64,000 nucleotides of DNA, taken from positions 32,001-96,000 of the IMG/VR virus record IMGVR_UViG_3300027863_000019; one strand, 5' to 3'. Shown in pieces: positions 8,860-51,744 of the stretch (its first letter is position 1; the number at the start of each line of letters is the position of its first letter). The notes under the pieces were generated by a model that saw only the letters and a program-made list of their open reading frames with translations, was not told the DNA's origin and ran no database searches. The DNA comes from a virus. A program made the translations under genes and the position numbers.

Positions 8860-8898
8860 GAAGCTTTCTACTTCAGCAGAGAGAGAGAGAGCATTCAC
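8860..8898 (+). mobile_element. degenerate IS200/IS605 right-end repeat (copy 1)
   Basis: gaagctttctacttcagcaga...gagagcattcac; shares cttcagc and GAGCATTCAC with other copies. Confidence 0.5.
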
Positions 8899-9114
8899 AA
8901 ACTTTGATAGCGGGGAAGTCGATTAAAAAAACATCGTAATAGGAGGCCATAAGTGGAAGGTAGAGAAATGCAGAAACGGATGAGACGATCAAAAATCGTT
9001 CTCTTCGTCATCACCGGCGCAATCATTATAGCGGAGATATTCAAGTTCTTCTTCGATCATCAATGAACGACTCATATGATAATTCACTTCCTGTTGCAGC
9101 TCTTGACTTTTCTT

Positions 9115-9182
9115 GGTCCTATAGCTCAACAGTAGAGCAGACTCCTCATTAGACTTAGGTTCAATTCCTAACAGGACTATCA
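9115..9182 (+). pseudogene. tRNA pseudogene (CAT-like loop, anticodon arm partly deleted)
   Basis: Acceptor ggtcct/aggact, D arm gctc/gagc, T arm ttagg-ttcaatt-cctaa; 3' anticodon strand missing; ends TCA. Confidence 0.65.
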
Positions 9183-9184
9183 CA

Positions 9185-9526
9185 TTGAAAGACAGAATTG
9201 GTAAACCATTCCATACTTTCGGTCAATTCAGTACTGTAAGATCTCATAAACCGGTTTGTAAGATATCCTGTCCTGCATGTAATCATATAAGTTATTCACA
9301 TTATATCCCTGGTTCATGTATTTCTATAACTTGCGTTAATTGTGAAACTAAGTTTATGGGAACTGTTGAACTTGGTAAGTGTGGCGAATGTGAACAAAGA
9401 GTTCGCTGTCTCGGCTTAATACCAGTTAAGTTTGAAACAGTTGATGATAATTTCGATCGTATTCCATCTGAAAATATTTCAACCTCAACTGGGGTTTTTG
9501 ATGTTTTGCGGAAGCGTTTCATTTAG
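9185..9526 (+). CDS. Cys-rich Zn-ribbon protein (paralog family A)
   Basis: CPAC, CVNC, CGECEQRVRCL. Confidence 0.6.
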   Translation: MKDRIGKPFHTFGQFSTVRSHKPVCKISCPACNHISYSHYIPGSCISITCVNCETKFMGTVELGKCGECEQRVRCLGLIPVKFETVDDNFDRIPSENISTSTGVFDVLRKRFI

Positions 9527-9599
9527 GTATCACGATTAATATCGTGACTCACAGATTCTTTGAAAAGCAGTTAAAGGTGAGTCCACGCGTTAGGTCGCA

Positions 9600-9974
9600 A
9601 TGAAAATTCCCAGTAAGCTTAGAAAAATCTTGAATGGATTACCGCCATGCCAAGAAAAACAAATCTCGACTTGGTATCACTCTCCGCAAACAGTAGAACC
9701 GTTTATCTTTTGTAAGGATCACGCTTGCGAAGAATGTATACTTCATAAAGCGACTATGATTACTAAATGCCCTTATTGTGGTACTTCAGTAGCAACAACT
9801 GTAGTCGTAGCTAAGAATGGATTTACATTATGTAGAATTGTGCAATGTGTTTGTAGACAACAATTTCGTGTAGTCTTTTGTGACATCTTTTGCAACTCTT
9901 GTAAATGTAAAGCGCAGTGTCTTTCAGTTCCTGCCGTGAAGCCTGATATTAGACTTCATGAAAAAATTAAATGA
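9600..9974 (+). CDS. Cys-rich Zn-ribbon protein (paralog family A)
   Basis: CPYC, CVC, CNSCKCKAQCL. Confidence 0.6.
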   Translation: MKIPSKLRKILNGLPPCQEKQISTWYHSPQTVEPFIFCKDHACEECILHKATMITKCPYCGTSVATTVVVAKNGFTLCRIVQCVCRQQFRVVFCDIFCNSCKCKAQCLSVPAVKPDIRLHEKIK

Positions 9975-10060
9975 TTGTAACTTTTTACTTGACTTTCTAT
10001 CTCAGATAAGACAAATTGAATTAACAATAGGAGGAGGTCTATTGGAAGGAAATAAAAACT

Positions 10061-10543
10061 ATGAGCTTAAAATTTATTGGTAAGGTAGGACGTAATTTCG
10101 GTTACGGATTTAAAGTGGTTAGAAGAATTGATGACAATACATTCGCACCGTATTTCGAATATTTTTTAAGAGGTGGAGGAGGACCAACTGTATTACCAGA
10201 TAATCCAACACCTGAATTCATGCGGCGAATAGTTAAAACGAAAATTACATATCGGATGTTTGAGAAGGCAAGACTTCGACATCGTCGATTAACTCGAACG
10301 ATGGTTCCTCCAGAGAAGATTTATTTAGCAGGATTTCATCTTTGGAAGGATTTAGATTATGCTAAAGAGCGACTCGAAGTTTTAAAGATCTTCAGTCCAG
10401 AGTTAGATCTTGCGCTGGTCAAATGTAGCTGGTCACAACCAATAGCTGCTGATGACGATACAGTGGTAGTAAAATCGTTTACTCCACTGGAGGAAATCAC
10501 AACTCAGGAGGTTGTTCATGCTCAAGAAGAAGGCAGGCGGTAA
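10061..10543 (+). CDS. hypothetical protein
   Basis: 160 aa ORF. Confidence 0.65.
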   Translation: MSLKFIGKVGRNFGYGFKVVRRIDDNTFAPYFEYFLRGGGGPTVLPDNPTPEFMRRIVKTKITYRMFEKARLRHRRLTRTMVPPEKIYLAGFHLWKDLDYAKERLEVLKIFSPELDLALVKCSWSQPIAADDDTVVVKSFTPLEEITTQEVVHAQEEGRR

Positions 10544-10931
10544 GCGGTTTTGGTTTAGCTTAGATACTCCTTATAAGATGGCTATGGCTTGTAAGAGTAT
10601 CCGGCCGTATTTTACAGCTCATCAAATCGCAGAGGCAACTGGTCTCGCCTTTTCTCATGTCGCCAAAACGTTGCACGTGTGGAAGAACGCCGGCCTTATC
10701 GAAGATACCGGCATTGGCAAGCGCGGAGAAGGAAGGCAATCACCACCATTCTTTCTTTACTCCACCACTAAGGTCTTCGACGCTCGCTTGAAAGAAGCTA
10801 CCGCTAAGCGGCTTGCAACTTCTTCGAAAGTTGAAAAACCGGAGCTTGTAGAGACGATTCCTTCACTAGTGCTGGCTCACTTGAAGAAAATCTCTAAAAG
10901 CTTCCAAGAATTGGATAAGCTCATCGGGTAA
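10518..10931 (+). CDS. winged-helix DNA-binding protein
   Basis: FTAHQIAEATGLAFSHVAKTL HTH-like segment; aggagg before ATG 10518. Confidence 0.6.
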   Translation: MLKKKAGGKRFWFSLDTPYKMAMACKSIRPYFTAHQIAEATGLAFSHVAKTLHVWKNAGLIEDTGIGKRGEGRQSPPFFLYSTTKVFDARLKEATAKRLATSSKVEKPELVETIPSLVLAHLKKISKSFQELDKLIG

Positions 10932-10934
10932 CAC

Positions 10935-11345
10935 TTGTTATACTTAGTACACGCCTGCACACGTCAAGTTGGAGACAGAATCATTAGCCTTTGTGGCGGA
11001 TGGTGCTGCTACAAGTTGGACTTTAGTCAATTTCCAAACGGAAGGTGGTTTGGAGAGCATTGTTCCTCCCTCATCGACGGGATATGCTCAGACTATGAAA
11101 CACGTCCCTTGGCGTGTGTAGGTGCTCCATTTTACGACGGAAGCTTTGAAGAATACCCACCGAATAAGTTTATTGTTCCGTGGTGTTGTTTTCGTAAGCC
11201 GATCCTTGATAGGTTTGGTATCCCATATGAAATCTTACCAACCGGCGATGATTGTATTATCGCTTATACTGAACAAGGTTTAGGTGATTTCGAAAGATGG
11301 CAAGCAAGAAGGTTTTACCAGAAGCAGACAATATTTTGGGAATAA
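10935..11345 (+). CDS. YkgJ-like cysteine-cluster protein
   Basis: CGGWCC, C..YETRPLAC. Confidence 0.7.
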   Translation: MLYLVHACTRQVGDRIISLCGGWCCYKLDFSQFPNGRWFGEHCSSLIDGICSDYETRPLACVGAPFYDGSFEEYPPNKFIVPWCCFRKPILDRFGIPYEILPTGDDCIIAYTEQGLGDFERWQARRFYQKQTIFWE

Positions 11346-11372
11346 GACAAATTTTGTTTAGGATTAACTCAC

Positions 11373-11735
11373 ATGAAATGGGACGACGTAAAAGACCAAT
11401 TCTTTCAAGCAGCCGACAGGCTGAACGCGAATGTCGACTACATTACCAGAGTCGGACAGGCATTTGAAGACTTAGTAAAAATTCTTTACGAGAGAGAACC
11501 GAACTCTTGTATTGATCAAATCAATAAAGATGCGGAAGTAATCGGACAGATCTTCACTGTTGAAGATCCCGAGAAAGTACCTGTTGATGCAATTAATGCA
11601 TCGTCTCAAGCTCTCACCAACACTCAGAAGTTTCTTTTTACCTTTCTTCGAGTAGCAGCTTTTTTTCAAGCTCATACTGCATCGGGAGCGGATCCCTCAG
11701 ACTTTACGATGCCGCCGGATGCAAAGGTACACTAA
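11373..11735 (+). CDS. hypothetical protein
   Basis: 120 aa ORF. Confidence 0.6.
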   Translation: MKWDDVKDQFFQAADRLNANVDYITRVGQAFEDLVKILYEREPNSCIDQINKDAEVIGQIFTVEDPEKVPVDAINASSQALTNTQKFLFTFLRVAAFFQAHTASGADPSDFTMPPDAKVH

Positions 11736-11737
11736 TC

Positions 11738-12848: not shown

Positions 12849-12854
12849 ACATCA

Positions 12855-13403: not shown

Positions 13404-13404
13404 A

Positions 13405-13650: not shown

Positions 13651-13662
13651 TTCAAAGGAGTC

Positions 13663-18599: not shown

Positions 18600-18864
18600 T
18601 CAGCCAGTAACTTTAATTAAATTATCTGTCACTTGTCCCATTTGTGGGTGGTATTACTCTGGTCATTTAAGGTTCCCGGAACCACCCTACTGTAACGATA
18701 AACAGTGTACTGGATGTAAAACAATTTTTAAGGTGAGATATAAGCTCTCATCTGAAGTCTGCGACGAGTGTAATCATAAGTTAAGATGCTTATCAATGCC
18801 CGTTGCAGATGTCAAAGAAAATATTCAACACGCGATGTTAGGAGATATAAATTGGAGTACATAG
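18565..18864 (+). CDS. Cys-rich Zn-ribbon protein (paralog family A)
   Basis: CPIC, CTGC, CDECNHKLRCL; start uncertain. Confidence 0.6.
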   Translation: MQTLTSNHSISDQPVTLIKLSVTCPICGWYYSGHLRFPEPPYCNDKQCTGCKTIFKVRYKLSSEVCDECNHKLRCLSMPVADVKENIQHAMLGDINWST

Positions 18865-19499
18865 TAATTGACTGTGAGCACTGTGGCGGTTGGTGCTGTA
18901 AGAGTCTCAATCGATCTGGCGTCGAACGTTCATACTGGATTAGTCTTAAACCTGATGAAGTAATCGAACTGAATCCTTGGATTCCAGTAAATATGTCTTT
19001 GGATAAGTACGACTTTTGTAAGTGTCAGCACCTTGATATTCATGGTCTTTGTAAATTCTATACTTATCGAGATGAAGCATGTAGAAATTATCCAAACTTG
19101 GAATTCTTCTTTATGGAATATCTCGAAGGTGATGCTGAGTTCTATGTCCCTTTCTGTACCTATCGATCATATATTTTACAAGCAAAGAATATTCCGTTTG
19201 AGGTGTGTTTAACTGGGGAAGAATGTCAACAAAAGTATTTAGAGCAATTTCGTTCTACTCCTGAAGATGCACTACAATTTCATGGATCTAAAATTTTATT
19301 GTATCAAGCTGGATATAGTTGTCATCAAATTGCAAAGTTAATTAAGTCTACATATTATGACGTTTACAAAGATCTTAAAAAGAGTGGAATTTTTCAATCC
19401 CAATCCCCAGCTCGTTTGAATCGGGCATCTTTTAACCGGCTCTCTAAAAAGCCCTCTGAAGCTGAGGGAGCATTCACAAAGAAAGCGGCTGATTTTTGA
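18852..19499 (+). CDS. YkgJ-like cysteine-cluster protein with HTH/IS-derived tail
   Basis: CEHCGGWCC, C.HL...LC..Y..R..AC; TTG start after aggag. Confidence 0.65.
   Translation: MEYIVIDCEHCGGWCCKSLNRSGVERSYWISLKPDEVIELNPWIPVNMSLDKYDFCKCQHLDIHGLCKFYTYRDEACRNYPNLEFFFMEYLEGDAEFYVPFCTYRSYILQAKNIPFEVCLTGEECQQKYLEQFRSTPEDALQFHGSKILLYQAGYSCHQIAKLIKSTYYDVYKDLKKSGIFQSQSPARLNRASFNRLSKKPSEAEGAFTKKAADF
19436..19477 (+). mobile_element. IS200/IS605 right-end repeat (copy 2)
   Basis: ctctctaaaaagccctctgaagctgagggagcattcac. Confidence 0.7.
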
Positions 19500-19511
19500 G
19501 ACAATAATCAA

Positions 19512-19928
19512 ATGAAACTAATCCGAGTCACGGATACAGATGAGTTCATGGGGTGGGATGTTGGTGACATCTCTGATACTGCTTTAATCTTTGAACTTAA
19601 ACACGCATGGAAAGATTATTTTAAGAAACACTCCTGTCCTTTAACTGTAGCGGCAGCAACGTTACATCCCGCAAGAGACTTTTGTAAACGAATAGGAATC
19701 CCATTTAGATTCTTCATTCGTTGCAGTATTCAAATCTTAGGGCAGTTTCCAAAGCCGTGGGAACTAAATCTTCGTTGGTTACAAGAAGAGATTGAAATCA
19801 TTTGGCTTTCAATGAAGGATACGCTCATTCCCGTTATTCAAGAGACGGATGAAGCTCAAAAAATTTTGCGGTCTCATAAGAAAAGTGAAAAGCGTAATTT
19901 ACATCATTCAAAATTTAGTGGATCATAG
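19512..19928 (+). CDS. hypothetical protein
   Basis: 138 aa ORF. Confidence 0.6.
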   Translation: MKLIRVTDTDEFMGWDVGDISDTALIFELKHAWKDYFKKHSCPLTVAAATLHPARDFCKRIGIPFRFFIRCSIQILGQFPKPWELNLRWLQEEIEIIWLSMKDTLIPVIQETDEAQKILRSHKKSEKRNLHHSKFSGS

Positions 19929-21335: not shown

Positions 21336-21368
21336 CTAGAAGCCCTCCGAAGCAGGGGGAGTATTCAC
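21336..21368 (+). mobile_element. IS200/IS605 right-end repeat (copy 3)
   Basis: ctagaagccctccgaagcagggggagtattcac. Confidence 0.65.
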
Positions 21369-21390: not shown

Positions 21391-23337
21391 GTGAATCATC
21401 ACCAACAATTCAAGACAACTGGCTCAAGGGAGATCCGTTTCAACTGCCCAATGTGTCCAAGCGGTGATTCGGGATATCATCTCTATTACAACCCCGTAAA
21501 GAGTGTTTTCTTTTGTTTACCTCCTTACTCTTTAGTGAGGTTAGCCCGAGGATTTTTTCCGATCGAGCAAGTAAAAATCGGCGATAAAGTCATCTCTTCA
21601 GATGGATTTCTGAGTAATGTAATTGATATTTGGAGTTCAAATTCTTCTAAGCCATTAGTAAGGGTAGTTCTTGAAAAAATGTCTGGACTGCCTTTAGAGT
21701 GTACGATTGATCATCCTATCTTTTGTATTAGAGATGGAGTTGAACAATATGTTGAAGCTGGTAAATTGCGTGAAAGTGACTATGTCTGTCTTTCCCATTT
21801 TTGTCATATAAAGGATCTCGAGGAAATTCAAATTGAAAGCTCCCGCTCCCGACTTTACAAGGATTCTTTAGGATCAGAATATGCAACAAAGGAAGGTGAC
21901 ACCCAAAAAAGAATTATTAAAGTCTCAAATGATTTTATGTATTTTTTAGGTTTATGGTTAGGCGACGGATTTTCAGCTAAAGGAAATGAAATTGGGATTT
22001 GTACTAGTCAAGAAAATGTTGATTTGATTTCATGTTTAGCTAAAAAAGTTTTGGGTAAATCATCCATTACTACAGGTAATGGAGCTCTATGTGTTCATGT
22101 TTGTGATACTTTTATCTCCCGCTTTTTCGTAAATCATTTTAGAGATTGTAACGGTGGTAAGTTTATACCTATTTGGATTTCACAATTACCAATCGAAAAA
22201 CTGCGTCATTTATTAGCTGGATTAATAGATAGTGATGGCTCGAGTCAAAATGAGGGTCGGTTTGTAAGTTTACAACAAACCGAAAAAAATAAGCAGCTCC
22301 TGTTCGCAGCATTTGAGATTTTCCAAAAATGTGGGGTTCCAGTCTCACTTCAATTCACGAGAGATAAGTATATAAATCATTCAGACAGATGGAATTTGCA
22401 AATGTCAGTAAATTTTGTCGCTGATTTACCTTTAAGAATCAAGCAGGCGCAGTTGACGAAGTGGGAAGATAATGTTAAAAATTTTAAGCATCTCAAGCTT
22501 AAAGATTGTTTTGCGTACAAGGTTAAAACAGTAGAAGTTTTAAAACAAGTGTCCGGTTTGGTATATGATTTAACAGTCGAGGGTGACCCTTCGTTCGCAG
22601 CGCCGTTTGCGATAGTCCACAATTGTCATAGATGTCATTACAGTGGATATGGTTTTCCTCAACTCGTTAAGACTTCTCTGCCTTTAGTAACTCCTACCAA
22701 GGAAGTAAAAGCAAAAGACCTCGAGTGGCAACCCCTTCATTGGCCTCCGACTGGTATTCTCGAATCCACCGTTTGGGATTATTTACTTACAACTAGGGGA
22801 ATCTCTGCGAATGTTATTGAACACTTTAAATTAGGTTGGACTCACAAGATTCCTTTAGCAGTAGTAATTCCATTAATTCAAGATGGAGATATTAGAGCAT
22901 TACAAGTGAGATTTTTAAGTAGCCAAATGAAACCCAAGTATTTGAATTATGCCATTGGAGATAAACCAATGGTGAAGTCCGAGATGATATTTAATATTGA
23001 TTCTGTTATTAAGGGTGTTAGTAAGTTATATATAATGGAAGGTGTCTTTGATGTAATGAAATCGGGTATCTGGAATGGTGTTTGTACTTTTGGAAAAATA
23101 ATTTCATCTGCGCAGTTAGTAATAATTAATAAGATACCTAAAGAAAAACTCGTGTTATCATTTGATTTCGATGTTAAAATAAAAGAAATCATCGAATCAA
23201 TTAAATCGTTGGAATCATTTGGAACCGTTTTTATTAAGAAAATTCCTGAAGGAAAGGATCCTGGAGATTTCGATCCCGATGCATTCGAACTACTGCCTGA
23301 AATTACAACACAAGAATATATGTTGGGGGTGCTCTAA
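21391..23337 (+). CDS. DNA primase (Zn-finger + TOPRIM), intein-containing
   Basis: CPMC...[intein]CHRC; EGVFD, SFDFD, KDPGD. Confidence 0.9.
   Translation: MNHHQQFKTTGSREIRFNCPMCPSGDSGYHLYYNPVKSVFFCLPPYSLVRLARGFFPIEQVKIGDKVISSDGFLSNVIDIWSSNSSKPLVRVVLEKMSGLPLECTIDHPIFCIRDGVEQYVEAGKLRESDYVCLSHFCHIKDLEEIQIESSRSRLYKDSLGSEYATKEGDTQKRIIKVSNDFMYFLGLWLGDGFSAKGNEIGICTSQENVDLISCLAKKVLGKSSITTGNGALCVHVCDTFISRFFVNHFRDCNGGKFIPIWISQLPIEKLRHLLAGLIDSDGSSQNEGRFVSLQQTEKNKQLLFAAFEIFQKCGVPVSLQFTRDKYINHSDRWNLQMSVNFVADLPLRIKQAQLTKWEDNVKNFKHLKLKDCFAYKVKTVEVLKQVSGLVYDLTVEGDPSFAAPFAIVHNCHRCHYSGYGFPQLVKTSLPLVTPTKEVKAKDLEWQPLHWPPTGILESTVWDYLLTTRGISANVIEHFKLGWTHKIPLAVVIPLIQDGDIRALQVRFLSSQMKPKYLNYAIGDKPMVKSEMIFNIDSVIKGVSKLYIMEGVFDVMKSGIWNGVCTFGKIISSAQLVIINKIPKEKLVLSFDFDVKIKEIIESIKSLESFGTVFIKKIPEGKDPGDFDPDAFELLPEITTQEYMLGVL
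21514..22623 (+). mobile_element. intein with LAGLIDADG endonuclease (370 aa)
   Basis: CLPPYS start, CTIDHP block B, LGLWLGDG and LAGLIDSDG, VHN|C end. Confidence 0.92.
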
Positions 23338-28083: not shown

Positions 28084-28097
28084 GAGAGAGCATTCAC
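28084..28097 (+). mobile_element. possible truncated IS right-end repeat (copy 4)
   Basis: gagagagcattcac, identical to the end of copy 1. Confidence 0.35.
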
Positions 28098-31618: not shown

Positions 31619-32140
31619 ATGACTGTCGAACTTGTTAAAGCTTACTTAAAGCGCCACATACACTTTGGAGAGTTTGAATTACACTCGGGAGTAGTGACAA
31701 ATTACTATATCGATATCCGTCCTCTCTTTCTCGATTCCTTGATCACTTATGACACTGCAATGATGATGTTTACAAAGTTGAATCCTGATATTCAATTCAT
31801 CGCTGGAGTCGAAAAAAGCGGTTTCATTATCGTTCCAAGTTTGATCGCGATTTGTCATCATCGTCCTTTGAAGGGAGTTCTTGTTCGTAAGATTCCAAAG
31901 ATGCATGGACTCTGTCGAATGGTCGAAGGAGATAGAATTCCTCTAGGAAGTAAGATGGCAATCGTAGATGATATCATTACAACTGGTGCATCGCTAAGGT
32001 TTGCTACTAGAGCAGTTGAAGAAGAGTATGGCGCTGAGGTTGTACAGTGGCTTACTTTAGTCGATAGAACTGAAGGAAAGGTTAAGACGCCCGTTCCATT
32101 AGTATCAGTATTTAAGGCTGAGGACTTATTGGCAAGCTAA
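31619..32140 (+). CDS. pyrE: orotate phosphoribosyltransferase
   Basis: GEFELHSG..YYID, VRK..K.HG, VDDIITTGAS. Confidence 0.85.
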   Translation: MTVELVKAYLKRHIHFGEFELHSGVVTNYYIDIRPLFLDSLITYDTAMMMFTKLNPDIQFIAGVEKSGFIIVPSLIAICHHRPLKGVLVRKIPKMHGLCRMVEGDRIPLGSKMAIVDDIITTGASLRFATRAVEEEYGAEVVQWLTLVDRTEGKVKTPVPLVSVFKAEDLLAS

Positions 32141-41876: not shown

Positions 41877-42914
41877 ATGGATACAACAGCAAAACAAGAT
41901 CTCGTAAGGAATATGTTAATCGCGATTGGTGAAGATCCAACTCGTGAAGGATTGTTAGATACTCCGAAGCGAGTCGTAAAAGCCTGGAATGAAATGTTTG
42001 CCGGATATAGAATGAAGCCGGAAGACATCGCTACCACATTTGATGCAGATGGGTACAATGAGTTAGTTCTTTTAAAAGGAATTGAATTCTACTCTACGTG
42101 CGTCGCAGGCTTTACAATGGTTGAAACTCCGAAAGGAAGGATGCCCTTATTTGCTTTGCGCTCAGGCGATTGGATTTATTCATTTAATGAACAACTCAAA
42201 ACGTTTGAAGTTGAACGGTGCTTAAATCCTAGAGTGACTCAGAAGGATGTCGAAGTTTTAAGGGTTATTTCCGAAAAAGATACTTTATTGTGTACTCCAG
42301 ATCATAAGTTTTTAACTTATGATGGTTGGGTTGAAGCTAAAGATTTGCGTCCTGGAACTAGAATTATCTCTGTATATGAAGATCCAATAAGAAGAGCCGC
42401 AATGTTTAAAAAAAGAAGTGAGTCGGTTGCTGTATCGTGGGAGGGAAGACGCGCCGATAAAAATCATAAAATTTTAGGTGTCGATTCTTTCCATGAAAAA
42501 ATTGATGTTTGGTGCCTTGATGCACCTAAAAATCATAACTTTGTTGCGAATGGGATGGTCGTACACAATTGTGAACATCACATGTTAAGCTTTTCGGGGA
42601 AGGCACATGTTGGATATATTCCAAATGGAAAGATTATCGGGATCTCAAAGCTTGCGCGCATCCTCGACATCTTTGCCAAACGTTTGCAGATCCAAGAACG
42701 AATTGGTCAACAAGTAACTCGAGCAATTAACGATTTGCTTGATCCAGTCGGTTCTGCTTGTATCATCGAAGCACAACATCTATGTATGAGATGTCGAGGA
42801 GTTGAGAAGCAAGAGTCAGTAATGATCACGAGTAGCTTAACTGGAGTCTTTCTCGAACACTCCGATAGAGGATTAGCAGCTCGCGCAGAACTGATGAGTT
42901 TAATAAGAGGTTAA
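41877..42914 (+). CDS. folE: GTP cyclohydrolase I, intein-containing
   Basis: GEDPTREGLLDTPKRV, [intein]CEHH, GISKLAR, QIQER, HLCMRCRG. Confidence 0.93.
   Translation: MDTTAKQDLVRNMLIAIGEDPTREGLLDTPKRVVKAWNEMFAGYRMKPEDIATTFDADGYNELVLLKGIEFYSTCVAGFTMVETPKGRMPLFALRSGDWIYSFNEQLKTFEVERCLNPRVTQKDVEVLRVISEKDTLLCTPDHKFLTYDGWVEAKDLRPGTRIISVYEDPIRRAAMFKKRSESVAVSWEGRRADKNHKILGVDSFHEKIDVWCLDAPKNHNFVANGMVVHNCEHHMLSFSGKAHVGYIPNGKIIGISKLARILDIFAKRLQIQERIGQQVTRAINDLLDPVGSACIIEAQHLCMRCRGVEKQESVMITSSLTGVFLEHSDRGLAARAELMSLIRG
42099..42569 (+). mobile_element. mini-intein (157 aa, no endonuclease)
   Basis: CVAGFT start, CTPDHKF, HNFVANGMVVHN|C. Confidence 0.92.
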
Positions 42915-43059: not shown

Positions 43060-43215
43060 CACGGAAGTGAGGAAAGCGTTACTTCTATGACGAGGTCTGA
43101 GAAAATCGGACTTACTGCTCCACAAGTGGAGCTCCAGAAGCACAACCGAGAGATGCGCGTTAGCGTTAGGAACTCGTGATTAATGTATCTAAACGCTTTT
43201 CAATTTTTCTCCGTG
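43060..43215 (+). ncRNA. Y-RNA-like unit 1 (multi-branch cargo)
   Basis: cacgga/tccgtg and ggaaagcgtt/aacgcttttc stems, AGUGA and ACUUC motifs. Confidence 0.75.
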
Positions 43216-43229
43216 CTTCCTTAAAAGGA

Positions 43230-43307
43230 TTTAAATTGTAAGTTTGGGGTTACTTCGTGCATAGGAAAAAACCTTGATCACAATTTCTCCCAATCTTACA
43301 ATTTAAA
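43230..43307 (+). ncRNA. Y-RNA-like unit 2 (degenerate 5' side)
   Basis: tttaaattgtaag/cttacaatttaaa, ttggggtt/aaccttga, ACUUCG, UUUCUCC. Confidence 0.55.
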
Positions 43308-43311
43308 ATAA

Positions 43312-43390
43312 AGGGTAGTGAGATTAGGCTTACTTCGCACATATGCTCATAACACGTCAGTGCTTAAACAAGCCTTTTCATTTTACTCCT
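43312..43390 (+). ncRNA. Y-RNA-like unit 3 (CAU anticodon stem-loop cargo)
   Basis: GGUAGUGA-gattaggctt-ACUUCG...aagccttttc-auuuuacuccu; internal atatg-CUCAUAA-cacgt. Confidence 0.75.
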
Positions 43391-43420
43391 ACCTATTTTA
43401 CCTAAGAGAGGTATAAACAA

Positions 43421-43501
43421 ATGGCTGGACCTAAAGGCGGTAAAGGTGGCGGAGGTAAAGGTGGCGGAGGTAAAGGTGGCGGAGGTGGTAAAGCCTGTTA
43501 A
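43421..43501 (+). CDS. 26-aa Gly/Lys-rich peptide
   Basis: MAGPKGGKGGGGKGGGGKGGGGGKAC; gagg RBS; 15-bp tandem repeat x3. Confidence 0.5.
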   Translation: MAGPKGGKGGGGKGGGGKGGGGGKAC

Positions 43502-43510
43502 TAAGTTGTT

Positions 43511-43583
43511 ATCCTTTTGTAGGGTCTGAATACCGGATGAATCCGGCTTTCTAAAAGCCCTCTGAAGCTGAGGGAGCATTCAC
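43511..43583 (+). mobile_element. IS200/IS605 right-end repeat (copy 5)
   Basis: ccggat-ga-atccgg hairpin + aagccctctgaagctgagggagcattcac. Confidence 0.7.
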
Positions 43584-43588
43584 TAGTG

Positions 43589-43664
43589 TGAGGTAGTGAC
43601 GTTTAGGGTTACTTCGGTAAAGCAACTGTTCGAAAAAACAAAACCCTTTACACTTTTCTCCTCA
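43589..43664 (+). ncRNA. Y-RNA-like unit 4
   Basis: tgagg/cctca, gtttagggtt/aaccctttac, ACUUCG, UUUUCUCC. Confidence 0.75.
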
Positions 43665-43683
43665 ATACTTCGCAGGATTTGAA

Positions 43684-44031
43684 ATGGGTAACCTTAGTCA
43701 TTGCTGTCCGTTTTGTGGAACTCCAGTTACGGTAGTTGGGCCTTGTGAGAAGTGTATGCCTAAATCACCCGAGCAGATTTTGCAAGGAGCTATAAGAGAA
43801 GATCCTATATTACAACAGAGTATCGTGGCAACAGAAGGTGATGAACTAAAGGATATTATTTTTAACTACGTCAACGCCCAGCCTGAGAAGCGGCTTCACC
43901 TTGATACAATCATTGCACGAATTAAAGGTGCTATGCCGAACGAGCACACAGGAAGTGTAAAACGCGCACTAAGATTTTTGCTTGATGAAGGGCGCGTAAA
44001 GCAAATTCAAGAAACTATAGTAATCAATTAG
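43684..44031 (+). CDS. Zn-ribbon + winged-helix-like hypothetical protein
   Basis: CPFCG...CEKC; VKRALRFLLDEGRV. Confidence 0.6.
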   Translation: MGNLSHCCPFCGTPVTVVGPCEKCMPKSPEQILQGAIREDPILQQSIVATEGDELKDIIFNYVNAQPEKRLHLDTIIARIKGAMPNEHTGSVKRALRFLLDEGRVKQIQETIVIN

Positions 44032-44164
44032 GAAGTGAGGAAACGGCTACTTCGACTAGGAACCGCCATTGTAGGTTCGAGTCCTACTCTCCCGATCATG
44101 GCGGGAGATGGTGAAATTGGTAATCACAGCGGAATAGAAAAACCGTTTTCATTTTTCTCCTAAT
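44027..44164 (+). ncRNA. YrlA-like Y RNA (unit 5) with circularly permuted tRNA domain
   Basis: T arm gtagg-ttcgagt-cctac, closed acceptor tctcccg/cgggaga, D arm gtga/tcac with GG, ccgc/gcgg, all inside the shared scaffold. Confidence 0.88.
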
Positions 44165-44264
44165 GTAGTTGTGAGAGGTCTTACGAAACGAAAGCAATTA
44201 TATTTATATTAAGTCTCGCCCTTTCTAGTATCATTTGGGTGGCAGTACGACTTCATTAACTTGA

Positions 44265-44341
44265 TGCGGATTGGAGAAGCGGTCTATCTCGTTTGGTTCA
44301 TAACCAAAAGATCACCGGTTCGAATCCGGTATCCGCTACCA
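44265..44341 (+). tRNA. tRNA-Met(CAT), initiator-like
   Basis: Full cloverleaf, loop ttcataa, encoded CCA, U1.U72 mismatch, A11-U24. Confidence 0.92.
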
Positions 44342-44347
44342 AATTTT

Positions 44348-44421
44348 AAATTGGGAAGTGAGGGTTGAGTTACTTCGATCATTGGTGACCGTTAACACTC
44401 AACTCGGTTTTCTCCCAATTT
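44348..44421 (+). ncRNA. Y-RNA-like unit 6
   Basis: aaattggga/tcccaattt, gggttgagt/actcaactc, AGUGA, ACUUCG. Confidence 0.78.
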
Positions 44422-44433
44422 TCTTTGAACGCT

Positions 44434-44460
44434 CTCCAGGTAGTGAGTTGAGATACTTCG
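44434..44460 (+). ncRNA. Y-RNA-like unit 7, 5' half (interrupted)
   Basis: ctccaGGUAGUGA-gttgagat-ACUUCG running into a tnpB remnant. Confidence 0.55.
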
Positions 44461-44567
44461 ACACTATTAATGCGGCTAAAAATATCCTGGCCCTGGGAAT
44501 GCAGGGCTTGAGGCTGGATTCATCCAGCTCTCTAGAAGCCCTCTGCTTCAGCTGAGGGAGCATTCAC
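44460..44567 (+). mobile_element. tnpB 3' remnant + IS200/IS605 right end (copy 6)
   Basis: Encodes DTINAAKNILALG (TnpB C-terminal NAAxNI motif), then two hairpins and TTCAC end. Confidence 0.8.
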
Positions 44568-44777
44568 CGTCGCTGAAAAGAAAGAAACGAAGCGCAAAGC
44601 GGCATTCGGAAATACCATGAGTAATTCCGCTCTCAAAGAACTTCTTTTGATACCACTGCTTCAGATCGGAATTCAAAAGCCAAAATTCGTAGAAGAGCAG
44701 CAAGATTTTTTGACTACTGTCGTTTACCTCTTAACAAATTTGATTTTGAAACGCTTTAAATCTAATTTTTGAGGAAT

Positions 44778-45131
44778 ATGAAAATGTTAGAAAGTACATT
44801 CTCCAACGAGCTTCAGGGTGAACAACCTAATTTCGCTCCCGCGGCACCCGTTCTTTCAGGCATCACTTTCGTGGGACGAGTGGCAAAGATTCAGGTTTCG
44901 TTGCCTATCGCTGATGCAGATGGTGGTGCTTTGACTGGATTGGCTGCGGTGAATGTGTTCTATAAGAACGCTACATTCGTTGGTTCCGATCCTGCAACTG
45001 AACGTGCGGCTGGAACTCCGATAGTTACAGTTGCAATTACTCCTGAGCAAGCTGGCCAAGTGGTCGAAGTGGATATACCAGATCTTGAGTTTGGAAAGGT
45101 TTACTTCTTCGCCGCAACATGTAACGATTAA
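44778..45131 (+). CDS. hypothetical protein, beta-rich (fibronectin-III-like)
   Basis: gagg RBS before ATG 44778; PAAP...DL..G..YFF pattern. Confidence 0.55.
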   Translation: MKMLESTFSNELQGEQPNFAPAAPVLSGITFVGRVAKIQVSLPIADADGGALTGLAAVNVFYKNATFVGSDPATERAAGTPIVTVAITPEQAGQVVEVDIPDLEFGKVYFFAATCND

Positions 45132-45250
45132 TCCTGCTTAAAGCAAGGCTCCAATGGAAAGCCCTTTTTCAAATCAAAAGCAGGCAATGATCGTTCTTAT
45201 GCCTTGGCCTTGGTGTGTGATCTACGCCTGGATCATCAGATGGTGGCACA

Positions 45251-45268
45251 AGCTGAGGGAGCATTCAC
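45251..45268 (+). mobile_element. truncated IS right-end repeat (copy 7)
   Basis: agctgagggagcattcac. Confidence 0.65.
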
Positions 45269-45289
45269 ATTCTTCCTGGAGGTGCTGAA

Positions 45290-46753
45290 ATGGCAAAATT
45301 CAACAGGAAAGTGTTATCACCAACATTAACAACTAACCTTGCAGGTGGTGAAGCTTATCAAGTGTCACCACAGTTGCAGTTCGTAACGACCCTGCTAACT
45401 TCATTCGCCGAAGACCAGTATTACCGGAAGGCAAGTGGAGCAGTCCGGACTGTTCGGTCTCTGATCGATCAGTTCCCGGATAAGTTGTTCGCGGCTAAGG
45501 CTGCGATCTTTGCTCGCAATGAGTTTGGAGTGAGATCCATTACTCACGTCGTTGCGGGTGAGATTGCCAATCGAGTTAAGGGAATCGGCTGGACCAAGCG
45601 GTTCTTCAATGCCGTTGTAAGGCGTCCGGATGACATCCTGGAAATTCTAGCTTATTACCTTGCAACTTATGGCAAGCCACTGCCAAACTCCTTGAAGAAA
45701 GGGTTGGCGGCTTCTTTCGACAAGTTCGACAAGTACCAGCTGGCAAAGTATCGCGGCGAGTCTCATAGCGTATCCCTCGTGGATGCGGTGAACTTAGTGC
45801 ACCCAAAACCGGTTGCCAAGAACGCGGAAGCGTTACGACAGCTGGTTAAGGATGCCCTGAAGTCCACTGAGACTTGGGAAGCGAAGTTGACCACTGCTGG
45901 ACAAGCGGCTCAAACCGAAGCGGAAAAGGAAGAGTTGAAGTCCCAAGCTTGGACTGAGTTGATTCGTGAGAAAAAGCTCGGGTACTTCGCGTTGCTCCGT
46001 AACCTACGGAACATCGCGCAGCAAGCTCCAGAGATTCTGGAAGATGCGCTGTCAATGCTGGTTGATCCGCAGCTCATCGAAAAGTCTTTGGTTCTTCCGT
46101 TCCGGTTTGGTACCGCATACAAGGAAATGGCTTTGGCTCGGAAGTCAGCCAGCACCAAAGCTGAAGTTTCCTTGTATGATAAAGTAGCGGGGGCTCTTGC
46201 AACGGCTGCTAGCATTTCTTTGAACAATGTGCCTAAGCTGCCTGGCAAAACCCTTGTGGCCTTAGATGTGTCGGGATCTATGGAAGGCAAACCTTTCGAT
46301 ATCGGATCCATGTTCGCTGTAGCTTTGGTAGGTGCGATGAAGGCGGATCTTATTATTTTCTCTAACTCCGCCAAGTACCTCAAACTGACCAAGACTGGAG
46401 ATATCTTCGAGAACATCGATTACATCTACAAGCATTCCGACTTTGGCGGAACTGACTTTCACTCAGTCTTCAGAACCGCCAAACATGCGTACGATAGAAT
46501 CATCATCCTGTCGGATATGCAGGCTTGGGTCGGGTATTATACACCAAAGGAAAGCGTGAAGGCCTTCAAGAAAGCCACTGGCGCCGATCCGCTAATCTAC
46601 TCCTTTGACCTGCAGGGTTATGGGACTCTGCAATTTCCAGAGTCAAAGGTATTCGCGCTGGCTGGATGGAGCGATAAGGTGTTTGACATCATGAAGATTT
46701 TAGAAACTGATCGTCAAGCCCTCATCAACACCATCAATGCTGTAACCTTCTAG
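45290..46753 (+). CDS. Ro60/TROVE domain RNA-binding protein (Rsr-like)
   Basis: NLAGG.AY, R.DD, KFD.YQLAKY, HPKP, TWE, ALLRNLRN, LPFRF, vWA DVSGSM and ILSDMQ. Confidence 0.93.
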   Translation: MAKFNRKVLSPTLTTNLAGGEAYQVSPQLQFVTTLLTSFAEDQYYRKASGAVRTVRSLIDQFPDKLFAAKAAIFARNEFGVRSITHVVAGEIANRVKGIGWTKRFFNAVVRRPDDILEILAYYLATYGKPLPNSLKKGLAASFDKFDKYQLAKYRGESHSVSLVDAVNLVHPKPVAKNAEALRQLVKDALKSTETWEAKLTTAGQAAQTEAEKEELKSQAWTELIREKKLGYFALLRNLRNIAQQAPEILEDALSMLVDPQLIEKSLVLPFRFGTAYKEMALARKSASTKAEVSLYDKVAGALATAASISLNNVPKLPGKTLVALDVSGSMEGKPFDIGSMFAVALVGAMKADLIIFSNSAKYLKLTKTGDIFENIDYIYKHSDFGGTDFHSVFRTAKHAYDRIIILSDMQAWVGYYTPKESVKAFKKATGADPLIYSFDLQGYGTLQFPESKVFALAGWSDKVFDIMKILETDRQALINTINAVTF

Positions 46754-47653: not shown

Positions 47654-47655
47654 TC

Positions 47656-48367: not shown

Positions 48368-49048
48368 ATGGCTGGAGAGATGTCTTGTATTGTCCTTTTA
48401 AGTGGTGGAATGGATAGTGCTACCTTACTCGCTAAAGCAATTAACGAGTTTGATAAAGTTAGCGCTCTCACTTTAATTTATGGTCAGAAGCATCGTCATG
48501 AATTAAAATGTGCAATGACTTTAACTAAGCACTTTAAAGTTCCCCACAAGGTCTTGGACGTATCGGTTATCAATTCGATTCTTCAAGGTTCGGCGTTAAC
48601 TGATTCTAGAGTGTCTGTTCCAAAAGGGCACTACGAAGATGAATCAATGAAGATGACCGTAGTGCCCGCACGAAATACAATCCTTCTAAGCCTCGCGCTT
48701 GGTTGGTGTATCAGCTGTGGATTTAATACGGTTGCGTATGCTGCACATTCTGGAGATCATGCAATCTATCCCGATTGTCGTCCAGACTATATCGCCGCGA
48801 TGCAAGACGTATTTAATAAAGCGCATTACTGGCCAATTAATCTATATGTACCTTTTATGCACATGGATAAAGGTTCAATCCTTGAAGTTGGATTTAAGTT
48901 GGGTGTTCCGTATGAACATACGTGGACTTGTTATGATCCACAGGGTGAAGAGCCCTTAGCATGTGGAACTTGTGGTAGTTGTACTGAAAGGCTTGAGGGA
49001 TTCGCAAAGAATAAAGTGAAGGATCCCGTTCAATACGTGAAAAGGTAA
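48368..49048 (+). CDS. queC: 7-cyano-7-deazaguanine synthase
   Basis: LSGGMDS, YGQKH, VPARN, YPDCR, TWTCY...CGTCGSC. Confidence 0.95.
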   Translation: MAGEMSCIVLLSGGMDSATLLAKAINEFDKVSALTLIYGQKHRHELKCAMTLTKHFKVPHKVLDVSVINSILQGSALTDSRVSVPKGHYEDESMKMTVVPARNTILLSLALGWCISCGFNTVAYAAHSGDHAIYPDCRPDYIAAMQDVFNKAHYWPINLYVPFMHMDKGSILEVGFKLGVPYEHTWTCYDPQGEEPLACGTCGSCTERLEGFAKNKVKDPVQYVKR

Positions 49049-49053
49049 AACTT

Positions 49054-49503
49054 ATGATTGTCAAACTGATAGCTGCTCTTGAAGTTGATGATGAAGCTTT
49101 TCTTGGAATCGTTGCTGAACTAAAAGAAAAACTTAAAGCTGATGCGAAGATCATCGAGACGAATTCGGATCTTGAAACGCTCCCCGCTATCAGTCAGTAT
49201 TGGTTAGCTCAGCGAGCTGATCTTGAATTCTTTAAAAGGCAAATCGAAAGAGACATTCGAATTGTCTCCGGTCCATTTCTAGCGAAGATTCAAAAATCGC
49301 ATTATGTAACAAGTAAAATTCTTGAAGCAGCGTTGCAGGAAGATCAAGAGTATGCCAAATTAATGGATAAGCTGTCAAGAATAACTTATGTCTTGGACTT
49401 AATTAATTCGACTGTCACTAGCCTTTGGTTCAAACGCGATTCACTTGTGAACCTTTCTATCACTCAGAGAAAACAGCTGTCATTTGAACAGCGCGAGTAC
49501 TAG
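49054..49503 (+). CDS. hypothetical helical protein (possible UvsY-like mediator)
   Basis: Helical composition; position before SSB and RecA. Confidence 0.45.
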   Translation: MIVKLIAALEVDDEAFLGIVAELKEKLKADAKIIETNSDLETLPAISQYWLAQRADLEFFKRQIERDIRIVSGPFLAKIQKSHYVTSKILEAALQEDQEYAKLMDKLSRITYVLDLINSTVTSLWFKRDSLVNLSITQRKQLSFEQREY

Positions 49504-49524
49504 AAATGGGTAGCGGAGTTTATA

Positions 49525-49596
49525 ATCCTTTTGCATGGCTTGAGGCTGGATTCATCCAGCTCTCTAGAAGCCCTCTGAAGCCGTGGGAACATTCAC
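49525..49596 (+). mobile_element. IS200/IS605 right-end repeat (copy 8)
   Basis: ggcttgaggctggattcatccagctctctagaagccctctg identical to copy 6; ends attcac. Confidence 0.72.
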
Positions 49597-49650
49597 AATA
49601 AACAATATAAACTTTTAAACAGTGTTTAATTACACAGGAGGAGAACTGCT

Positions 49651-50472
49651 ATGACATTCTTAGACGCACTAAAGAAACAGTTGGACCCGGAGTCATTTCG
49701 TAAGCTTGCTGATGTCCGCTCTGCGGTAGAAGGCCGTTTTATGAAACTCGCTGACGGTATTAATACCGTCAGGATCTTGCCTGCTTATAAAGAAGGTGGA
49801 TTATGGTTTCGGGAAGTAAGGAACCACTTTAAAGTTGGTGGTGGAGAAAGAAATCGTGTGTGCGTTTGTAACGCTGCCGAGACTCCTCCATCAAGATGTT
49901 TCGTCGACGATGCTATTACAGTCTTAGCAATGTCGCCGAGTAAGGAAGATCAGGAAGCGGCTCGTAATATGAAAGCTAGTCGGGTCTTCTGGGTTAACGC
50001 TTATGATGTGAAAGCCGAAGAGCCCGTGGTAAAAATTTTACCTTTGAGCTTTACTGTCTTTGGACAGGTCTTTCAGCTATTCATAAGCGGCGAAGACTTC
50101 GTTCATCCCGAGACTGGATTCAATGTGATTATTACAAAGAACCCGGGAAATCGATATAACGTCCGTTTAGATCGTCAATCTTCGGCGATCGCTAACGAAG
50201 ACCTGCTAGGTCAATGTCATGACCTGGATGCAATAGTTCAAAATCAGCGTCGTAGTTATGAAGAGCAGAAAGGTTACTTTCCGCCTGAACTAGTTGCTCG
50301 TGTTGAGAGCTCTTTAGGTGGAGGTAAATCTTTTGAGGGTACTGGCACTATTACTCCAGAAGCACCTATCAAAGAAGCTAAAGATACTGGAGGAGATAAT
50401 ATCAAATCTGGTATGGATAAGTTGAAAGGTGCAATCGCAGGCGAAAAAGTCGTTCTCGGCGAGATCGACTAA
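49651..50472 (+). CDS. single-stranded DNA-binding protein (gp32-like)
   Basis: G.NTVRILP, H...C...C, P.TGFNV.I.K; precedes RecA. Confidence 0.75.
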   Translation: MTFLDALKKQLDPESFRKLADVRSAVEGRFMKLADGINTVRILPAYKEGGLWFREVRNHFKVGGGERNRVCVCNAAETPPSRCFVDDAITVLAMSPSKEDQEAARNMKASRVFWVNAYDVKAEEPVVKILPLSFTVFGQVFQLFISGEDFVHPETGFNVIITKNPGNRYNVRLDRQSSAIANEDLLGQCHDLDAIVQNQRRSYEEQKGYFPPELVARVESSLGGGKSFEGTGTITPEAPIKEAKDTGGDNIKSGMDKLKGAIAGEKVVLGEID

Positions 50473-50480
50473 TTATCTCA

Positions 50481-51530
50481 ATGATCATGCCCGGGGGCTT
50501 TGGCTCCCGGGCTTCTAGAGTTTATATGAGCCAACTGCGCGAAAAGTTAGGTGCTTTAGATCTAGACTCTCCTGAATGCCACGCCAACGTCAAGGAATTT
50601 ATTCCGTCTGGAATTCCTACATTTGATATTATTACAGGAAGAGGTGGAATTCCTGTAGGAAGAACTATCAGCTTAGTAGGAGAACCTGGAACTGGAAAAA
50701 GTTCTCTTGTCTATTCAATTCTTTCATCCGTTCAAAAACGTGGGGGAATTAGTGTTCTCATCGATAGTGAATACTCTTTGGAGGTTGAGCGAGCCAGGAT
50801 TGTAGGTCTAGACACTAATGAACTAATTAAATTCGAAGATGTACAACTTGAGCAAATAGTTCCTCTCATAGAAAACGTTATAAAGCTTGTAAGAGCAGAT
50901 AATCCTGATAAGTTGTTATGTATTGCTTTAGATACATGTTCTGCGCTTGCGAGCGAATCTGACCTGTCTATGGCAGAGGGAAAGTCAACTCAGCCCGGAA
51001 TGCACGCACGATATTTCAGTCAAGCTTTTCGAAAAATTGTTGGTTTGATTGCAAAGACTCGCGTTGCATTAATCTTAGTACATCAACCAAGAACGAAAAT
51101 TATGACGATGGGTTATGGAAGTCCTTTAACGTGGTTAGCTAAAAACCCTACCACGTTTTACTCTTCCATGATTTTCCAGCTTGCTAGATTTCGTTATGTC
51201 AAGCAAGGACAAGATCCCATTGGCATTGAAGTTAAAGCAAAATGCATTCGTAATAAGTTAGCACCCCCTTTAAAGGCTTGTAACTTTATCGTTCGCTGGG
51301 ATTCAGGAGTAGATGGAGTAACTCCAATTTTGGATCTGCTTATTATGGCAAAAATTGCACTTAAAAAAGGAGCTTGGACAACATTGCCGAATGACGTAAA
51401 AGTTCAGTCAAGTACTTTTCGTGACTACTACCGTGAACATTCAGAACAAGTAGATTTGTGGGTAAAAGAAGCAATGGAAAATTTGACTGATGCTGACATG
51501 GACGAAGAAAAAGATCCAGAGGTAGACTAA
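50481..51530 (+). CDS. RecA/UvsX-like recombinase
   Basis: GGIPVGR, GEPGTGKS, IDSE, RNKLAPP; start may be 50526. Confidence 0.9.
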   Translation: MIMPGGFGSRASRVYMSQLREKLGALDLDSPECHANVKEFIPSGIPTFDIITGRGGIPVGRTISLVGEPGTGKSSLVYSILSSVQKRGGISVLIDSEYSLEVERARIVGLDTNELIKFEDVQLEQIVPLIENVIKLVRADNPDKLLCIALDTCSALASESDLSMAEGKSTQPGMHARYFSQAFRKIVGLIAKTRVALILVHQPRTKIMTMGYGSPLTWLAKNPTTFYSSMIFQLARFRYVKQGQDPIGIEVKAKCIRNKLAPPLKACNFIVRWDSGVDGVTPILDLLIMAKIALKKGAWTTLPNDVKVQSSTFRDYYREHSEQVDLWVKEAMENLTDADMDEEKDPEVD

Positions 51531-51532
51531 AA

Positions 51533-51667
51533 ATGGTGAGAAAGGAAGGTAGTAAGTGGGTTGTACGCGCTGAATCAACTGGACGTATTCTTGGAAAGCA
51601 TCCTACTAAACGGGAAGCTTTAAGGCAACTGAGAGCCGTTGAGGCGAACAAACACGGGAAAAAATAA
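51533..51667 (+). CDS. small basic phage protein (44 aa)
   Basis: Manual translation MVRKEGSKWVVRAESTGRILGKHPTKREALRQLRAVEANKHGKK. Confidence 0.65.
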   Translation: MVRKEGSKWVVRAESTGRILGKHPTKREALRQLRAVEANKHGKK

Positions 51668-51730
51668 GCGCGATCCAGCAATTATCTTTAAAACTTCAAG
51701 CCAATTTTGATTGGTATGTAGCAATCGTCA

Positions 51731-51744
51731 GAGGGAGCATTCAC
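51731..51744 (+). mobile_element. truncated IS right-end repeat (copy 9)
   Basis: gagggagcattcac. Confidence 0.55.

Follow-up and report, generated by a model that had tools for sequence, protein, structure and literature searches.

Dispersed right ends of a tnpB-only IS200/IS605-family element in a phage genome, probably insertion scars

Nine right ends of one element family

Why should a phage genome carry the same short sequence nine times, always on one strand and each time followed by a different flank? The question is raised by a stretch of 64,000 nucleotides from a virus (IMG/VR virus record IMGVR_UViG_3300027863_000019, positions 32,001 to 96,000; hereafter the window). A first-pass annotation of this DNA had described the copies as orphan right ends of IS200/IS605 insertion sequences (IS) overlapping the scaffold of the guide RNA (omega-RNA) of TnpB, and had left three readings for them: insertion scars, a dispersed set of trans-acting guides, or domesticated regulatory sites. 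As detailed below, the copies are identified by homology as right ends of a tnpB-only element and are probably decaying scars of its insertion, eight of them most likely functionless, whereas the copy ending at 44567 could still yield a guide RNA.

The copies end at 8898, 19477, 21368, 28097 (a weak case), 43583, 44567, 45268, 49596 and 51744. A repeat search and a regular expression were each used; all nine ends were recovered, on the + strand only, with the common terminal sequence GAG(G/A)GAGCATTCAC. In an alignment of the nine, identity ends at ATTCAC in each copy and the 3' flanks are unrelated, as had been described before. A 29-nt consensus occurs exactly in two copies (19477 and 43583) and with three mismatches in one (49596), and shuffled sequences gave no match. 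Copy lengths were taken as the homology to a full-length element on another phage contig, L020, counted backwards from the right end, and amount to 99, 69, 68, 45, 39, 36, 18, 15 and 14 nt. The individual copies are as follows, with scores in bits from the covariance model R1 described below.

8860-8898, + strand: 8898 copy, 29/39 against the right end of L020; long variant of hairpin C, expanded by (GA)n; 11.1 bits
19436-19477, + strand: 19477 copy, 38/45 identical to L020; short variant (3-nt deletion in hairpin C); 16.4 bits
21336-21368, + strand: 21368 copy, 28/36 identical to L020; short variant; 16.5 bits
28083-28097, + strand: 28097 copy, 14/15 identical to L020; possible right-end stub, weak
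43510-43583, + strand: 43583 copy, 74-nt left-end::right-end fusion, a mini-element of the kind discussed below as PATE-like; right end 56/69 against L020; 23.4 bits
44466-44567, + strand: 44567 copy, tnpB 3' stub plus right end; 93/99 identical to L020; 79.8 bits
45251-45268, + strand: 45268 copy, 18-nt right-end stub, 18/18 identical to L020, directly upstream of the Ro60 ribosome-binding site
49525-49596, + strand: 49596 copy, 72-nt left-end::right-end fusion; short variant; right end 55/68 against L020; 19.6 bits
51731-51744, + strand: 51744 copy, 14-nt stub, 14/14 identical at the exact element terminus

The 44567 copy connects the series to its source. It is 94% identical to the full-length element L020:9908-11146 over 99 nt (44469-44567; blastn, E 8e-39), and residues 349-377 of the TnpB protein P0122 match window positions 44466-44552 with 86% identity (tblastn, E 3.9e-10). 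The open frame in this copy reads INAAKNILALGMQGLRLDSSSSLEALCFS and then a stop, which are the last 29 TnpB residues, so that the motif NAAKNI, previously read as a TnpB C-terminus, is confirmed as one. Full-length TnpBs terminate in ...NAAKNILALGMQGLKPDSSGSLEALCFS and the closest ones in ...DRDLNAAKNILALGMQGLKPDSSGSLEALCFS, the tnpB stop codon being the TGA within GCTGAGGGAGC.

Full-length elements all terminate at GAGGGAGCATTCAC in the three contexts in which they were found: L019/L023, a metagenome contig of 1.8 kb; L020/L021, a contig of 68 kb from a different phage; and L172, from a sister strain of the window phage. The right flank of L020/L021 is unlike that of the other two, which have one common flank and different upstream sequences. 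The element ends are TCCTTTTGCA...GCATTCAC; both carry subterminal hairpins (CTCGCC-TTTA-GGCGAAG at the left end in seven elements, hairpins B and C at the right end) and there are no terminal inverted repeats. The left flanks of nine phage-type left ends read TTATAG, TTAATA, TTATTA, TTATAA and similar, and 17 of 18 methanogen copies have TTATAG or a near variant, which gives a TTATAG-like candidate target motif (transposon-adjacent motif, TAM). From homology to these intact elements, the nine copies are identified as right ends of a tnpB-only IS200/IS605-family (IS1341-like) element, in line with the assignment made at first pass.

Two of the copies are more than right ends. The 43583 copy holds element left-end nt 1-25 at 43510-43534 (23/25 identical, z = 5.1), has lost stem A and has the left flank TTGTTA; the 49596 copy holds the 11-nt left-end terminus ATCCTTTTGCA at 49527-49537, precisely where its right-end homology ends, and has the left flank TTATAA. 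Both flanks are similar to the target motif. In each case the joint falls in a box common to the left end (TGCAAGGTCTGAATACC) and the tnpB 3' end (TGCAGGGCTTGAAACC), and the two copies appear to be 'solo' fusions formed by deletion between the two boxes. The earlier statement that only right ends survived thus needs amending for these two. Apart from their left-end pieces and the tnpB stub at 44567, no other tnpB or left-end fragment was found in the window.

The copies also differ in hairpin C. A short variant (CTCTGAAGCTGA, 3 nt shorter) is present in the copies ending at 19477, 21368, 43583 and 49596, and a long one (CTCTGCTTCAGCTGA) in those ending at 44567 and 8898. Because both variants are present, at least two source lineages would have contributed, and several insertion events are therefore likely.

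As to their positions, long open reading frames (ORFs) lie on the + strand only, GC skew is positive throughout the window, and + strand genes begin 12-100 nt after every copy. The copies had been placed between genes or at gene ends, and this holds, with upstream ORFs running through two of them: the 19477 copy lies inside the 3' end of ORF 18786-19499, whose frame continues through the relic, and the 28097 copy supplies the final codons of a small, Cys-rich ORF. The latter copy has the same GAGAGAGCATTCAC variant as the 8898 copy; its matching stretch is the 3' end of a small Cys-rich ORF in the relative L166, and it may have arisen by chance. The 8898 copy is an old, decayed right-end relic, with weaker similarity perhaps back to about 8822. 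The 21368 copy sits between a DnaB-like helicase gene and the following gene, and the 51744 copy 12 nt upstream of the TTG start of a putative small-terminase gene.

The guide-RNA scaffold and a resident tnpB

Is the conserved right end an RNA? A total of 143 TnpB loci at 30-100% identity were collected in one scan each of metagenome and genome collections, from phage-like contigs, Methanothrix and Methanosarcina relatives, Chloroflexota and others, and their right ends have a common ...GGGGAG(T/C)A(G/T/A)TCAC. The last 100 nt of 29 non-redundant members (46-100% amino acid identity) were aligned as A2. RNAalifold predicted stems A and C, with compensatory change in 12 of the 14 pairs; a length-variable hairpin B between them was spotted by eye and stands outside the model. 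Mutual information over 73 sequences linked tail positions -7, -6 and -5 to three positions of the stem A loop, pointing to a 5-bp pseudoknot between GAAUG in this loop and CAUUC in the tail, which is paired in all 29 sequences with covariation in three of its five pairs. The DRD codons (GTGAC, at about -105) had also been considered as the partner strand and were rejected, as mutual information favoured the stem A loop. Compensatory change is seen in 15 of the 19 pairs of the whole scaffold, pseudoknot included; paired cells amount to 96%, compared with 39-43% when the partners are slid, and none of 500 shuffles matched the observed covariation.

No Rfam family matched the relics or the scaffold in the stretch searched. 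The pseudoknotted scaffold that this covariation supports is newly defined, as a model for a TnpB guide-RNA clade of phages, methanogens and Chloroflexota. According to the model, the terminal ATTCAC is the pseudoknot strand plus two nucleotides, and ...GAGGGAGCATTCAC of intact elements would comprise the 3' strand of hairpin C and the pseudoknot strand CAUUC of the TnpB omega-RNA, which would explain the conservation of the terminal motif. In a separate metagenome contig (L047), the right-end motif GGGGAGTAGTCAC occurs at 267-279 and 4123-4135, 3.9 kb apart; the upstream occurrence is a possible additional solo right end.

The covariance model built from A2 (R1) was run unfiltered over the window. 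It gave 79.8 bits (E 3.8e-16) for 44459-44567, over the full model length, at most 23.4 bits for the remaining scored copies, and no further copy. The scoring against omega-RNA covariance models that was recommended at first pass, made here with our own model, thus recovers one copy in full. Only the 44567 copy has the complete scaffold (stems A and C, hairpin B, pseudoknot and tail); the other eight lack both stem A and the pseudoknot, so that a complete scaffold directly followed by a guide, as a functional omega-RNA gene would need, is present at 44567 alone. Hairpin B is unrecognisable in the 8898 and 19477 copies, and hairpin C has a mismatch in the 49596 copy. The compensatory change noted at first pass (ctggat/atccag vs ccggat/atccgg) is real and falls in the variable hairpin B. 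In the 43583 copy, the hairpin B loop (43536-43549) is TGAA, compared with TTCA, TAAA, TTTA and TTAA in full-length elements; this inversion (ATTCAT to ATGAAT) renders the loop complementary to the tail UUCA, and could be a rebuilt pseudoknot or chance.

A guide RNA would also need a protein. The statement that no tnpB is intact holds for the window, but not for the genome: some 10 kb beyond the end of the window, the same phage has a tnpB that looks intact. A contig with 99.9% identity to the window (L003, L016, L017) stops within this gene, after its first 89 codons. A search with the N-terminal TnpB fragment returned hundreds of full-length TnpB proteins. L017 carries the TnpB N-terminus, and the sister-strain contig L172 the whole 377-aa gene in the same neighbourhood, in the order 66-aa neighbour gene, tnpB left end cut to about 22 nt, 377-aa ORF, right end and flank CGTCCTCCCAGAG. 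Since two assemblies break inside tnpB, the right end and guide of the window strain itself are deduced from L172 and from the C-terminus of P0123, a 374-aa cluster member that fits the window-strain N-terminus and matches L017 at residues 70 and 77. On this basis the resident element would have the short hairpin-C variant, from a 374-aa TnpB ending ...SLEAL.

P0121, P0122 and P0123 all contain the RuvC motifs GIDVG, CVEDL and DRDLNAA and the zinc-finger motifs CHRCG and CPCCG, and the TnpB Pfam domains are PF12323, PF01385 and PF07282. The resident TnpB is accordingly predicted to have complete catalytic motifs (D-E-D) and a complete zinc finger, and the search for tnpB outside the window, recommended at first pass, turned up such a gene. 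Only about 22 nt of its left end are retained. About 780 nt upstream of it, a 73-nt copy of the tnpB 5' end (L017 10544-10616, about 9-10 kb past the window end) is about 96% identical to 11321-11393 and extends into the start region of a 144-aa ORF. TnpBs at least 80% identical in amino acids to the resident one occur in at least five phage-like contexts, and the lineage seems, from these neighbourhoods, to be resident in phages. Such TnpBs have as neighbours a terminase in L020, a phage-type RNase H in L024 and a portal-type protein in L026 (phrog_332, E 1e-136); in L101, whose contig was binned as Brevinema andersonii, the neighbour is an endolysin.

With a complete scaffold and a tnpB in one genome, the 44567 copy (at most together with the two fusions) might yield a transcript that the resident TnpB takes up in trans. 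A second guide, CGTCGCTGAAAAGAAA..., would then cut insertion-free sibling phages that carry the neighbouring cassette, driving or protecting the locus by the logic already proposed for palindrome-associated transposable elements (PATEs); Meers et al. (PMC10055086) proposed trans-acting omega-RNAs from protein-less elements. By analogy with ISDra2, in which RNA 5' of the pseudoknot-loop hairpin is dispensable (PMC10097598), the scaffold would start at this hairpin and the 44567 copy, with its 79.8 bits, would be complete. The intact catalytic motifs of the resident TnpB favour the idea, as does protection of the phage's own locus, where the guide match is preceded by TTCAC; because the TTATAG-like motif is unlike this right-end terminus, no copy would target itself.

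When the 16 nt after each copy were searched with up to two mismatches, however, no second match was found in the window and the fetched relatives, with one exception: the flank of the 45268 copy, a stub without scaffold, matches the orthologous Ro60 leader in L012. The flank of the 44567 copy is absent from IMG/VR as well. Moreover, this copy is 94% identical to active-looking elements, so that its intactness may reflect youth alone; its long hairpin C differs from the short variant deduced for the resident element, making their cross-compatibility presumptive; and the fusions lack stem A and the pseudoknot. We therefore consider an orphan guide at 44567 unlikely, and a dispersed set of guides, as had been suggested, is unsupported as a set.

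A bolder version holds that the phage keeps an immobilised, catalytically intact TnpB as a weapon with one or more separate guide genes, cutting sibling phages at several loci: 44567 in the structured Y-RNA/Ro60 locus, about 29 kb upstream of tnpB, and perhaps 43583, where the UGAA loop and UUCA tail may form a rebuilt pseudoknot. This joint claim appears quite improbable; if true, it would describe a minimal, array-less and virus-borne precursor of a multi-guide system.

Insertion scars and their alternatives

With RecA and the helicase as entry points, relatives at about 75% DNA identity were collected, and about 100 kb were examined. No right-end copy was found in them by pattern or with R1, and none is present at any of the six copy sites that they cover. 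Exact-pattern scans of IMG/VR with the short and long right-end variants and the 44567 flank gave no true match; two 17-mer matches (L001 and L002) lie inside ORFs and were discarded as chance. The region was unmatched in the INPHARED phage collection. The alignment of related phages thus confirms that the copies are absent at the covered sites, but a clean empty site with a TAM for the left junction was not recovered.

What the relatives have in place of the copies differs from site to site. At 49596, two genes abut in L010-L012 and the window has a 135-nt insertion that holds the relic. At 45268, homology to L011 and L012 restarts at the first base after ATTCAC. At 19477, the window is about 200 nt longer than L165 and L166; about 30 nt of gene overlap are duplicated on both sides of this insertion (19300-19540), and ORFs 18786-19499 and 19512-19928 are both open around the relic, the corresponding genes overlapping directly in the relatives. 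At 21368, the relatives have 500-700 nt instead of the stub; at 28097, L166 is about 180 nt longer and its ORF ends differently; and at 51744, the relatives have an extra small ORF or a direct gene junction. This pattern is what would be expected to remain after left-running deletions that start inside an inserted element.

Insertion scars account best for these data. The source would have been a non-autonomous tnpB-only element of the IS1341-like type circulating among phages, and intergenic DNA in this phage lineage would have received it repeatedly, always with its active strand on + and just upstream of gene starts. Insertion of IS200/IS605 elements is reported to be biased towards the lagging-strand template (Ton-Hoang et al. 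2010), and the uniform + orientation and the GC skew on the + strand fit such a bias. Later deletions would have taken out the left end and tnpB. The right junction would have been kept because of its closeness (12-100 nt) to the start of the following gene, whereas leftward deletions would remove no more than the tail of the preceding gene or some dispensable small gene. The products would be the two left-end::right-end fusions (43583 and 49596), the tnpB 3' stub (44567) and six stubs of 14-45 nt. Eight copies have no pseudoknot partner in a stem A loop and are, most likely, scars without function; the 44567 copy could still give a guide RNA for the resident TnpB. Of the three readings offered at first pass this one fits best, given the loss of stem A and pseudoknot in eight copies, the decaying hairpins and the absence of the copies from diverged relatives, and we hold it to be probable.

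Several points weigh against it. The window has nine right-end pieces and no free left-end piece in 64 kb, a strong asymmetry, which the deletion model explains without proving it. The scaffold at 44567 is intact in a region that is likely transcribed, so that for this copy the word scar may be wrong. No tnpA that could have moved the element was seen adjoining the tnpB loci inspected, the scan of the window itself for tnpA not being exhaustive. Finally, the three shortest copies have at most one mismatch, which could reflect selection on the terminal 14 nt or, equally, the fact that stubs of such lengths are detected only if well preserved. The six longer copies are mismatched at about 6% of their final 14 nt and at about 7% of positions -15 to -33, and an extra constraint on the terminus was not supported once these alone were counted.

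This last point bears on the suggestion that the terminal GAGGGAGCATTCAC has been retained before genes as a regulatory site, for ribosome binding, RNA processing or TnpB binding. Every copy has a + strand gene 12-100 nt downstream, and the right end of L020 stops 2 nt before the next ATG, where GAGGGAG can act as a Shine-Dalgarno sequence; together with the three near-perfect stubs this would argue for such a site. In the window, by contrast, no start codon follows GAGGGAG at 5-12 nt and the genes that follow are equipped with a separate GGAGG or GAGG, so that a Shine-Dalgarno role holds in phage L020 and was dropped here. The terminus is no better conserved than the adjacent 20 nt in the longer copies, the same genes in relatives are expressed without the motif, and TnpB keeps its catalytic residues, unlike TldR repressors. 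Domestication as a cis-element is thus very unlikely. A phage promoter or sigma-70 -35 reading of TTCAC(A) was also rejected, since no common -10 element or spacing follows the nine copies.

The breakpoints in the relatives bring up one more explanation, in which the copies are recombination joints rather than RNAs, portable homology used by co-infecting phages to swap gene cassettes in the manner of the PeSL elements of T4-type phages or of composite transposons. Each copy covered by relatives does lie at a synteny breakpoint, the assembly contig L004 breaks at copies, and a block of about 800 bp (44466-45268) is flanked by two right ends and has ORFs that are absent from relatives. However, any insertion or deletion scar would give breakpoints, stubs of 14-45 nt are short for homologous recombination, and a second phage with the same cassette between the same ends is not known. 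Recombination at the copies would then be a consequence of the scars and not a selected function, and we regard a joint function as improbable.

Relation to known systems and local setting

In the tnpB-only IS1341 group of IS200/IS605, the omega-RNA overlaps the tnpB 3' end and the right end (Karvelis 2021, PMC8612924; Meers 2023, PMC10055086). The present element resembles this group in its TnpB domains (HTH_OrfB_IS605, OrfB_IS605 and zinc ribbon), the lack of inverted repeats, the subterminal hairpins at both ends, the A/T-rich candidate target motif (TTATAG-like) 5' of the left end, and the fixed TCAC at the right end, where the scaffold RNA ends. It differs in its phage host, in that most copies are 5'-truncated stubs, in the lost left end of the resident tnpB, and in having no known tnpA partner.

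The cryo-electron microscopy structure of the ISDra2 omega-RNA has a pseudoknot just upstream of the guide (PMC10097598). There, as in our model, the last nucleotides before the guide pair with a region near the scaffold 5' end, several stems lie between, and the scaffold overlaps dispensable C-terminal tnpB codons. The two have no sequence similarity; the scaffold is about 90 nt here and 116 nt in ISDra2, and the 5-bp pseudoknot in the stem A loop is predicted from covariation, whereas that of ISDra2 is known from structure.

PATEs are miniature protein-less IS200/IS605 derivatives whose omega-RNAs would need a TnpB made elsewhere, in trans (Meers et al., PMC10055086). Like them, the 43583 and 49596 copies, about 73 nt long, join the left-end terminus to the right end, and their left flanks resemble the target motif. 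Unlike them, they keep one of the two end hairpin modules (the left-end hairpin is gone), lack the guide-RNA pseudoknot, and are just two non-identical copies with no further ones found in IMG/VR, so that they look like deletion products and not like a proliferating family. Protein-less IS605 derivatives with possible trans omega-RNAs are thus already known.

TldR proteins are nuclease-dead, TnpB-derived, RNA-guided repressors (PMC10705468). A TnpB-family protein and guide RNAs with targets near gene starts would be common to both systems, but here the D-E-D motifs are kept, the guides are local flanks, and no conserved target was found with up to two mismatches.

The T4-type phages have promoter/stem-loop cassettes, the PeSL elements mentioned above. 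By description only, these are similar in being short repeats at intergenic cassette boundaries of a large phage in a single orientation, and dissimilar in that the present repeats originate from transposon ends and are followed by no promoter consensus.

Insertion sequences are rare in phage genomes, and at least ten traces of one TnpB lineage in one phage (nine relics and the resident tnpB) represent an unusual density of IS relics. The spread of this TnpB fits the view of TnpB elements as homing-type parasites able to move through phage populations, and the relics flag where the phage gained and lost DNA with respect to its relatives. If the 44567 copy were used in trans, it would be a natural TnpB guide apart from its nuclease gene, with a bearing on the origin of CRISPR-like arrays.

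Three of the relics (43583, 44567 and 45268) lie in the non-coding RNA region before a Ro60/TROVE gene (45290-46753; region 43060-46753), the first of them in a Y-RNA-like array and the second interrupting Y-RNA-like unit 7. Upstream of Ro60 are also a tRNA-Met (44265-44341) and a weak YrlA (Y-RNA-like) match at 44040-44152 (25.5 bits, under the gathering score). The cargo ORFs between the two right ends (44617-45131) have no relatives in the fetched loci, and a left-end-like reading of 45122-45250, upstream of the 45268 copy, was dropped (z = -0.2).

The non-coding stretch of about 860 nt that holds the 8898 relic (8325-9184) also contains a run of about 80 T (8623-8700) and, at 9115-9179, a tRNA-like match (Rfam tRNA, 41 bits) without an ARAGORN call. 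Elsewhere in the window, gene 21391-23337 contains a 1.1-kb insertion (21516-22623), probably of an intein or a homing endonuclease, that four relatives (L165-L168) lack. An 838-aa ORF beside the portal gene (52866-55382) has a faint intein match and may be the large terminase, and the GTP cyclohydrolase I gene at 41877-42914 contains an intein.

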